The notes under the pieces were generated by a model, which was given only the letters and a program-made list of their open reading frames with translations, searched no databases and had not been told where the DNA came from. From Escherichia coli (GTDB lineage Bacteria; Pseudomonadota; Gammaproteobacteria; Enterobacterales; Enterobacteriaceae): DNA of 64,000 nt. The stretch's first letter is position 1, and each line of letters starts with the position of its first letter. The stretch lies in the NCBI RefSeq assembly GCF_024502345.1, contig NZ_JALDNN010000001.1; one strand, given 5' to 3'. Positions 63,700-63,802 of the stretch are shown here, one piece after another. The position numbers and the translations under genes are program-made.

Positions 63700-63802
63700 C
63701 ATGCCGGATGCGGCGTGAACGCCTTATCCAGCCTACAAAATTGTGCAAAATCAATGGATTGCACAGGTAACGTAGGCCTGATAAGCGTAGCGCATCAGGC
63801 AG
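63700..63802. repeat. BIME: two REP (palindromic unit) elements in inverted orientation
   Basis: GCCGGATGCGGCGTGAACGCCTTATCCAGCCTAC at about 63702..63736 and its inverted partner GTAGGCCTGATAAGCGTAGCGCATCAGGC at about 63772..63800, between convergent gcd and cueO. Confidence 0.75.

Follow-up and report, generated by a model that had tools for sequence, protein, structure and literature searches.

The sequence between gcd and cueO in the 64,000-nucleotide stretch of Escherichia coli DNA that we analyzed (the window) is almost certainly a single BIME-1 element (RIB/RIP), i.e. a non-coding, non-autonomous Escherichia repeat of ~150 bp that lies in the 3'UTR of gcd and would have a small or near-neutral effect. 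It is an already known kind of element, which is also found at the same locus in K-12.

The gcd-cueO spacer occupies 63665-63865 and is 201 bp long. The two genes are convergent, with stop codons on either side of the spacer as listed in Table 1; this agrees with an earlier note on this DNA, which had placed a REP/BIME element between convergent genes. In thousands of E. coli genomes the genes on the two sides carry the annotations gcd and cueO. The comparison with K-12 that the earlier note had proposed gave a spacer of the same length in MG1655 and 3 differences over 251 aligned bases, two of them in the inter-REP linker and one in gcd. A repeat feature was not found in the gcd-cueO spacer in the K-12 RefSeq annotation, and neither of the names REP10 and RIP10 was found in the published supplement in which they were looked up.

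Open reading frames of 71 aa (63602-63817, - strand) and 45 aa (63688-63825, + strand) cross BIME-1, and a 'hypothetical protein' is annotated under the BIME-1 region in a J53 derivative. The frames that cross the element are probably spurious, repeat-derived calls. A degenerate REP hairpin is also present elsewhere in the window, in the hpt-can spacer at about 60496-60527 (K-12 141972-142003). A 2026 bioRxiv preprint lists it in Table S16 as REP11, another bidirectional terminator; it escaped our strict Y/Z searches, in which up to 3 mismatches were allowed.

The element is composed of a left flank motif, a Y REP, an L linker with an IHF consensus, an inverted Z1 REP and a right flank motif. 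The two REP units were located with consensus strings that are the published REP queries of PMC11208160. The Y unit matched with one mismatch and the z unit with none, and no such matches occurred in 100 dinucleotide-preserving shuffles of the window. The claim that two inverted REP units occur within 63700-63802 is thereby confirmed. A poor alignment to the REP consensus, named beforehand as the result that would speak against it, did not occur, and the alignment of Y, L and Z1 held. The family quoted in that claim, GCCGGATG...TATCCGGCCTAC, describes the first unit, which is of the Y type; the second unit is of the short z type (Z1).

Table 1. Features of the gcd-cueO region, in coordinates of the window.
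Feature	Position	Strand	Remarks
gcd ORF	61256-63664	+	stop TAA at 63662-63664; homologous region annotated gcd in E. coli genomes
Locus-specific spacer GACTTGCT	63665-63672		between gcd stop and repeat; the empty allele lacks it and has CCA in its place
Whole BIME-1 unit	63673-63822	+	~150 bp, ends +/-3 nt; from alignment of independent copies
Left flank motif CAGATTGCTGACAACGTGCGCGTTGTTCA	63673-63701	+	non-REP, yet part of the repeat
Y-type REP GCCGGATGCGGCGTGAACGCCTTATCCAGCCTAC	63703-63736 (unit ~63702-63736)	+	1 mismatch to Y consensus
L linker	63737-63771	+	35 nt
IHF consensus WATCAANNNNTTR (AATCAATGGATTG)	63749-63761	+	perfect match
Short z-type REP (Z1) GCCTGATGCGCTACGCTTATCAGGCCTAC	63772-63800 (unit to ~63801)	-	0 mismatches; inverted relative to Y
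Exact natural IS621 target ATCAGGCCTAC	63772-63782	-	inside the Z1 REP
Right flank motif AGATTTGCGTTTGTCATCAGTTT	63802-63822	+	conserved in independent copies
Bidirectional terminator hairpin ATGCCCGGA-GAGA-TCCGGGCAT	63825-63846	.	9-bp stem, pair I4; outside the repeat; terminator by published SEnd-seq-derived mapping, weak U tract
cueO stop codon	63866-63868	-	

Both units have the properties of REPs. They are GC-rich imperfect palindromes of ~30-35 nt that end in CTAC/GTAG and are predicted to form hairpins, and the inverted-repeat pairs I1 and I2 connect the Y and z units. They are also extragenic and multicopy; a 301-nt query matched a median of at least 38 places per E. coli genome. A G to A change at 63730 in the Y unit weakens the stem in the + strand RNA, and the predicted hairpin energy of this unit is -15.1 kcal/mol on the + strand and -18.7 on the - strand; that of the Z1 unit is -13 kcal/mol. 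The predicted folding is strong on both strands (z = -5.6 on the + strand and -6.1 on the - strand), and the whole gcd 3'UTR has a predicted fold far stronger than shuffled sequences. The IHF motif occurs 4 times in the window against 2.4 expected, so that it is not above chance by itself; its weight comes from the position inside the L linker.

The repeat is wider than its two REPs. Copies at dacB-obgE, yiiF-fdhE, sbp-pfkA and mscK-rsmS align to the window from CAGATTGCTGACAA... to ...GTCATCAGT, and 13 metagenome loci also support the flank motifs and the extent of the unit. The 37 nt to the left of Y recur within E. coli genomes, at a median of 4 places in each, and the matches begin at query position 7-8. 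Furthermore, the left and right flank motifs contain a partial terminal inverted repeat, TGCTGACAA / TTGTCATCA (pair I5). Because the similarity between copies continues beyond the REPs, the repeat is ~63673-63822 and not 63700-63802; the narrower interval, proposed in the earlier note, includes both REPs and falls short of the boundaries seen in five independent copies.

The yiiF-fdhE and gcd-cueO copies have an identical left motif and Y unit. In some metagenome contigs (the L031 cluster and one contig in the L028 cluster) the gcd-cueO flank is joined via the repeat to the yiiF-fdhE flank. Such contigs result either from chimeric assembly or from gene conversion among the copies; a metagenome contig of this kind was set aside as a probable assembly chimera.

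BIME-1 is defined as one Y and one Z1 unit with a long conserved L linker, often with an IHF site, in single copy (PMC3333891). It has a size of ~140 bp and is present or absent among isolates (PMC1187871). The sources for BIME-1, RIB and RIP are Gilson 1991, Boccard & Prentki 1993 and Oppenheim 1993, as summarised in PMC3333891 and PMC1187871. The gcd-cueO element shows the same organization, with a single inverted Y and Z1 pair, a long L linker with the IHF consensus and a length of ~150 bp including the outer motifs. The tandem Y-Z2 units with short S/l/r linkers that characterize BIME-2 are not found here; there is a single Y, a short z and a 35-nt L linker. The label Z1 was assigned by exclusion, since REP325 has the long z form as its 'Z2', and it also leans on what we take to be the original nomenclature. 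The reading of the short z unit as a 'Z2', which would make this an atypical BIME, was dropped on the same ground, BIME-1 being Y, Z1 and L.

Next we analyzed the locus in 5,426 complete E. coli genomes; this is a non-random sample, so the numbers are counts and not population frequencies. A largely intact filled allele was found in 2,736 genomes and an empty allele in 2,370 (1,697 + 673), which corresponds to about 50-54% filled versus 44% empty. In the empty allele, of which E2348/69, EC958 and O111 are examples, the spacer has only 46 bp, with CCA between the gcd stop and the hairpin. A scar allele of 77 bp, which keeps the left flank motif and has lost both REPs, occurs in 95 of the 5,426 genomes; CFT073, Nissle 1917, ATCC 25922 and MS15046 (L003) belong to this group. 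The scar is explained by a deletion between 8-nt TTCATGCC repeats at the start of Y and in the terminator hairpin. Other alleles have a different linker (HCM-28C-2, which reads TTCAA at the IHF core where the window reads ATCAA), a duplication of part of the flank and the Y unit (AR_0017) or a deletion of the L linker. The terminator hairpin is unchanged in every allele. The presence or absence of a whole BIME-1 among isolates has already been described (PMC1187871).

The Z1 REP is also a natural landing site for IS621. It contains the exact natural target of this element, the sequence of which was taken from PMC11208160. In strain E7476 (L004 1657-2950) IS621, an IS with a bridge-RNA recombinase, is inserted exactly at ATCAGGCCTAC in Z1. 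The junction GTAG|GCCTGAT was found at an identity of at least 99% in ~196 of the 5,426 genomes (about 4%). A further 272 genomes have the junction at 90-95% identity, and these matches are presumed to be IS621 in other BIME-1 copies.

The convergent gcd/cueO arrangement is conserved in several enterobacterial genera, with a spacer that contains either its own repeats or just the hairpin. Three Escherichia lineages with a gcd identity of 93-95% showed a diverged filled allele, an empty allele with the same junction, and eight tandem units. The filled/empty polymorphism is thus old, or it was spread by recombination. E. fergusonii, E. albertii and E. marmotae were not found under those names when genome contigs were scanned for a Gcd C-terminus pattern.

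The eight units are from Escherichia sp. MOD1-EC7003 (L023 2667-3524), in which a 107-bp Y-L-Z1 unit is present in tandem with 96% matches. This array is a tandem amplification, BIME-1 being described as single copy. In Pseudocitrobacter, Yokenella and other Enterobacteriaceae (among L010, L011, L017-L019 and L021) the gcd-cueO spacer contains CCCTCTCCC...GGGAGAGGG-type repeats, which we take to be boxC-like, and Lelliottia, Pluralibacter and Silvania have their own species-specific REPs there. Repeats of different families appear to have landed repeatedly in the gcd-cueO spacer.

These data bear on the alternative that the element is mobile DNA of a purely selfish or neutral kind, which has no host function at this locus and persists as a harmless insertion between stop codon and terminator. 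The polymorphism in presence and absence favors such a view, as do the scar allele from the TTCATGCC repeat deletion, the partial Y duplication in AR_0017, the eight tandem copies in MOD1-EC7003, the L-linker-deleted allele and the tolerance of IS621 insertions in ~196 genomes. However, the filled allele is also present in Escherichia lineages with 93-95% gcd identity, which implies long persistence, and according to the 2026 bioRxiv preprint convergent gene pairs with REPs are more highly expressed genome-wide. The alternative moreover overlaps with the preferred reading, a BIME-1 in the gcd 3'UTR, which already assumes a small effect. We consider it a serious competitor, although we lean somewhat against it.

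The relation of BIME-1 to transcription can be deduced from a published map. Table S16 of the 2026 bioRxiv preprint, which reuses a published SEnd-seq-derived map, includes gcd:cueO as a bidirectional terminator; the gcd and cueO transcripts overlap at K-12 138648-138678 in both log and stationary phase, and the entry has no REP flag. This interval corresponds to 63821-63851 of the window, i.e. to the hairpin next to the repeat. The hairpin has a predicted energy of -17.4 / -16.0 kcal/mol with z = -4.9. A simple terminator consensus scan did not call it, its U tract being weak, and a promoter/terminator consensus scan of 63500-64000 found no sites. Because the transcript overlap in K-12 is confined to the hairpin, the gcd mRNA reads through BIME-1 and ends past the hairpin, and the cueO mRNA stops at the edge of the element. 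BIME-1 is therefore part of the gcd 3'UTR, which is ~187 nt long, and the cueO transcripts end short of it. The Y unit starts 38 nt past the gcd stop.

The same map makes it quite unlikely that the REP pair itself terminates gcd and/or cueO. Among the 306 bidirectional terminators that have been mapped between convergent genes, 78 are attributed to REPs (2026 bioRxiv preprint), and Rho-dependent attenuation by REPs has been reported, in the citation of Espeli 2001 given by PMC2817692. At this locus, however, the mapped overlap is at a non-REP hairpin in an entry without a REP flag, and genomes with the empty allele retain the hairpin unchanged.

What BIME-1 may do for gcd can be stated in general terms. 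It has been argued that REPs are context-dependent terminators and blocks of mRNA decay (2026 bioRxiv preprint). The two REP stem-loops in the gcd mRNA would present 3'-5' exonucleases with a secondary barrier and in this way modestly stabilize the message; they could also attenuate any read-through from cueO. The mRNA-stabilizing role suggested in the earlier note could apply to gcd only, since both genes terminate at the neighboring hairpin. By analogy with other REPs, a modest gcd-stabilizing or read-through-limiting role would be the best functional assignment. According to the 2026 bioRxiv preprint, mRNAs that end in REPs do not in general have longer half-lives. Since the gcd 3' end is already protected by the terminator hairpin, the contribution of the REPs may be minor. 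A stabilizing role would be dispensable because ~44% of the complete E. coli genomes lack BIME-1, and because nearly half of E. coli are without the element we infer that its net effect is small or near-neutral. The 50/44 split, the L-linker-deleted alleles and the tolerated IS621 insertions together suggest near-neutrality.

The linker DNA could in addition bind IHF and be bent. Binding of IHF has been demonstrated for the BIME-1 class (PMC3333891), and the gcd-cueO copy, which has a consensus match, would share this property by analogy; REPs are not discussed in the IHF ChIP study of Prieto 2012. The earlier note had offered gyrase or IHF as binding proteins. IHF is the relevant protein of this class; the preference of gyrase is documented for BIME-2 (PMC3333891, PMC6379681).

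That the region encodes a small RNA of its own, of the ES036/CssrF or naRNA type, is very improbable. The element scores 37.2 bits with the Rfam model RF02751 (ES036/CssrF), with 43 of 43 model positions aligned, and 34.8 and 18.0 bits with RF02564 (naRNA4); northern blots have moreover shown CssrF at the BIME-1 of the dacB/yhbZ locus in Shigella (PMC3071730). However, the scores are below the respective gathering thresholds, by 0.4 bits in the case of ES036 (37.6) and far more clearly for naRNA4 (59.5), where single REP hairpins alone align. The matches are to repeated linker and REP sequence; because the ES036 model describes the BIME-1 linker, its match supports membership in BIME-1 and not a separate sRNA gene. 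Furthermore, 63500-64000 contains no promoter-like site, the gcd 3'UTR already accounts for transcription of the region, and the nucleoid role of naRNA4 is contested (2026 bioRxiv preprint). A strong gyrase site of the BIME-2 type that organizes local supercoiling is barely credible, because, although a Y REP is the unit preferentially cleaved by gyrase, the enrichment of gyrase is reported for BIME-2 only (PMC6379681) and the architecture, with a single Y, a short z, a long L linker and no tandem Y-Z2, is not that of BIME-2.

We also examined the flanks of BIME-1 at other loci. A metagenome scan with the left motif gave 105 usable copies from 13 distinct loci. At 6 of these 13 loci a locus-specific terminator hairpin is present in both flanks, as a direct repeat of 18-27 nt; the flank-repeat scores at the six loci are 10.5-23, compared with a maximum of 9.0 in 180 mismatched flank pairs. 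The duplicated segment consists of an A tract, the hairpin and TT. At rlmC-artJ (L030) and yqjF-yqjG (L071/L151 versus L150), empty alleles in complete genomes have exactly one terminator and filled alleles have a terminator on both sides. This has the appearance of an insertion into the T tract of the terminator in which the whole hairpin was duplicated, and it points to insertion that targets terminators. The loci considered for this pattern also include L148, L029, L055, L080 and L123. A filled/empty comparison was not available for L029, which is not E. coli, for sbp-pfkA, which is nearly fixed, and for mscK-rsmS, where no clear empty allele was found. The gcd-cueO copy has no flanking duplication (score 5.0), and its hairpin is on the right side only. 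Of the two marks of a MITE-like transposable element, terminal inverted repeats and a target-site duplication, this copy shows the first in partial form, and flanking duplications were seen at the six loci above. A description of terminator duplication around BIME-1 was not found in the accessible literature, a body of work that leaves the key primary BIME papers outside.

It is conceivable, but rather doubtful, that the gcd-cueO BIME-1 arose by a process of insertion directed at intrinsic terminators. An insertion in the T tract of a terminator would duplicate the whole hairpin, and such a duplication would imply a structure-directed mechanism, for example one acting on an extruded hairpin or cruciform, unlike transposition of the IS200/IS605 type. 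As a result of the duplication the element would be bracketed by two terminators and by direct repeats that could serve for precise excision. At the gcd-cueO locus the second copy of the terminator would then have been lost.

For the window itself these results carry little weight, since the element is a textbook intergenic repeat and the same locus is occupied in K-12. They refine the earlier note as to the subclass of the element, how far it extends, where it lies relative to the actual terminator, and the fact that it is dispensable. For annotation they imply that 'hypothetical proteins' called across BIME-1 are best treated as spurious, that near-matches to Rfam sRNA models are repeat matches, that the mapped terminator of gcd and cueO is the neighboring hairpin, and that the Z1 REP is a landing pad for the bridge recombinase element IS621. 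The filled/empty polymorphism is a natural experiment on the question of whether a BIME-1 in the 3'UTR alters gcd expression. If the terminator duplication at other loci has indeed not been described before, it is relevant to the long-standing question of how REPs and BIMEs spread.

Compared with the BIME-1/RIB/RIP class, the gcd-cueO element shows no essential difference. Its IHF core is perfect, where ATTCAA is found in most BIME-1 copies, the stem of Y contains one mismatch, and a terminator hairpin flanks the element on just one side. The K-12 BIME-1 at dacB-obgE (dacB/yhbZ), the type locus of Rfam ES036/CssrF, is collinear with it over the whole unit and both flank motifs. These two copies differ at several linker positions and in the position of the terminator hairpin, which is on the left (Y) side at dacB-obgE and on the right at gcd-cueO.

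The BIME-2 element REP325 (the naRNA4 locus, yjdM-yjdN), which acts as a 3'UTR terminator/stabilizer, has the Y REP and the logic of REP hairpins in common with the gcd-cueO copy; the long Z2, the short linkers, the tandem arrays and the gyrase preference of BIME-2 are absent from the latter. REPINs, which are mobilized by RAYT / TnpA-REP, are similar in having two inverted REPs with a spacer and in their non-autonomous mobile behavior. However, the units on either side of yafM, the RAYT gene of E. coli, are Y and Z2 (BIME-2) and not Z1 (PMC2817692), and transposition of the IS200/IS605 type produces no long target duplications, unlike what is seen at the other BIME-1 loci examined here.
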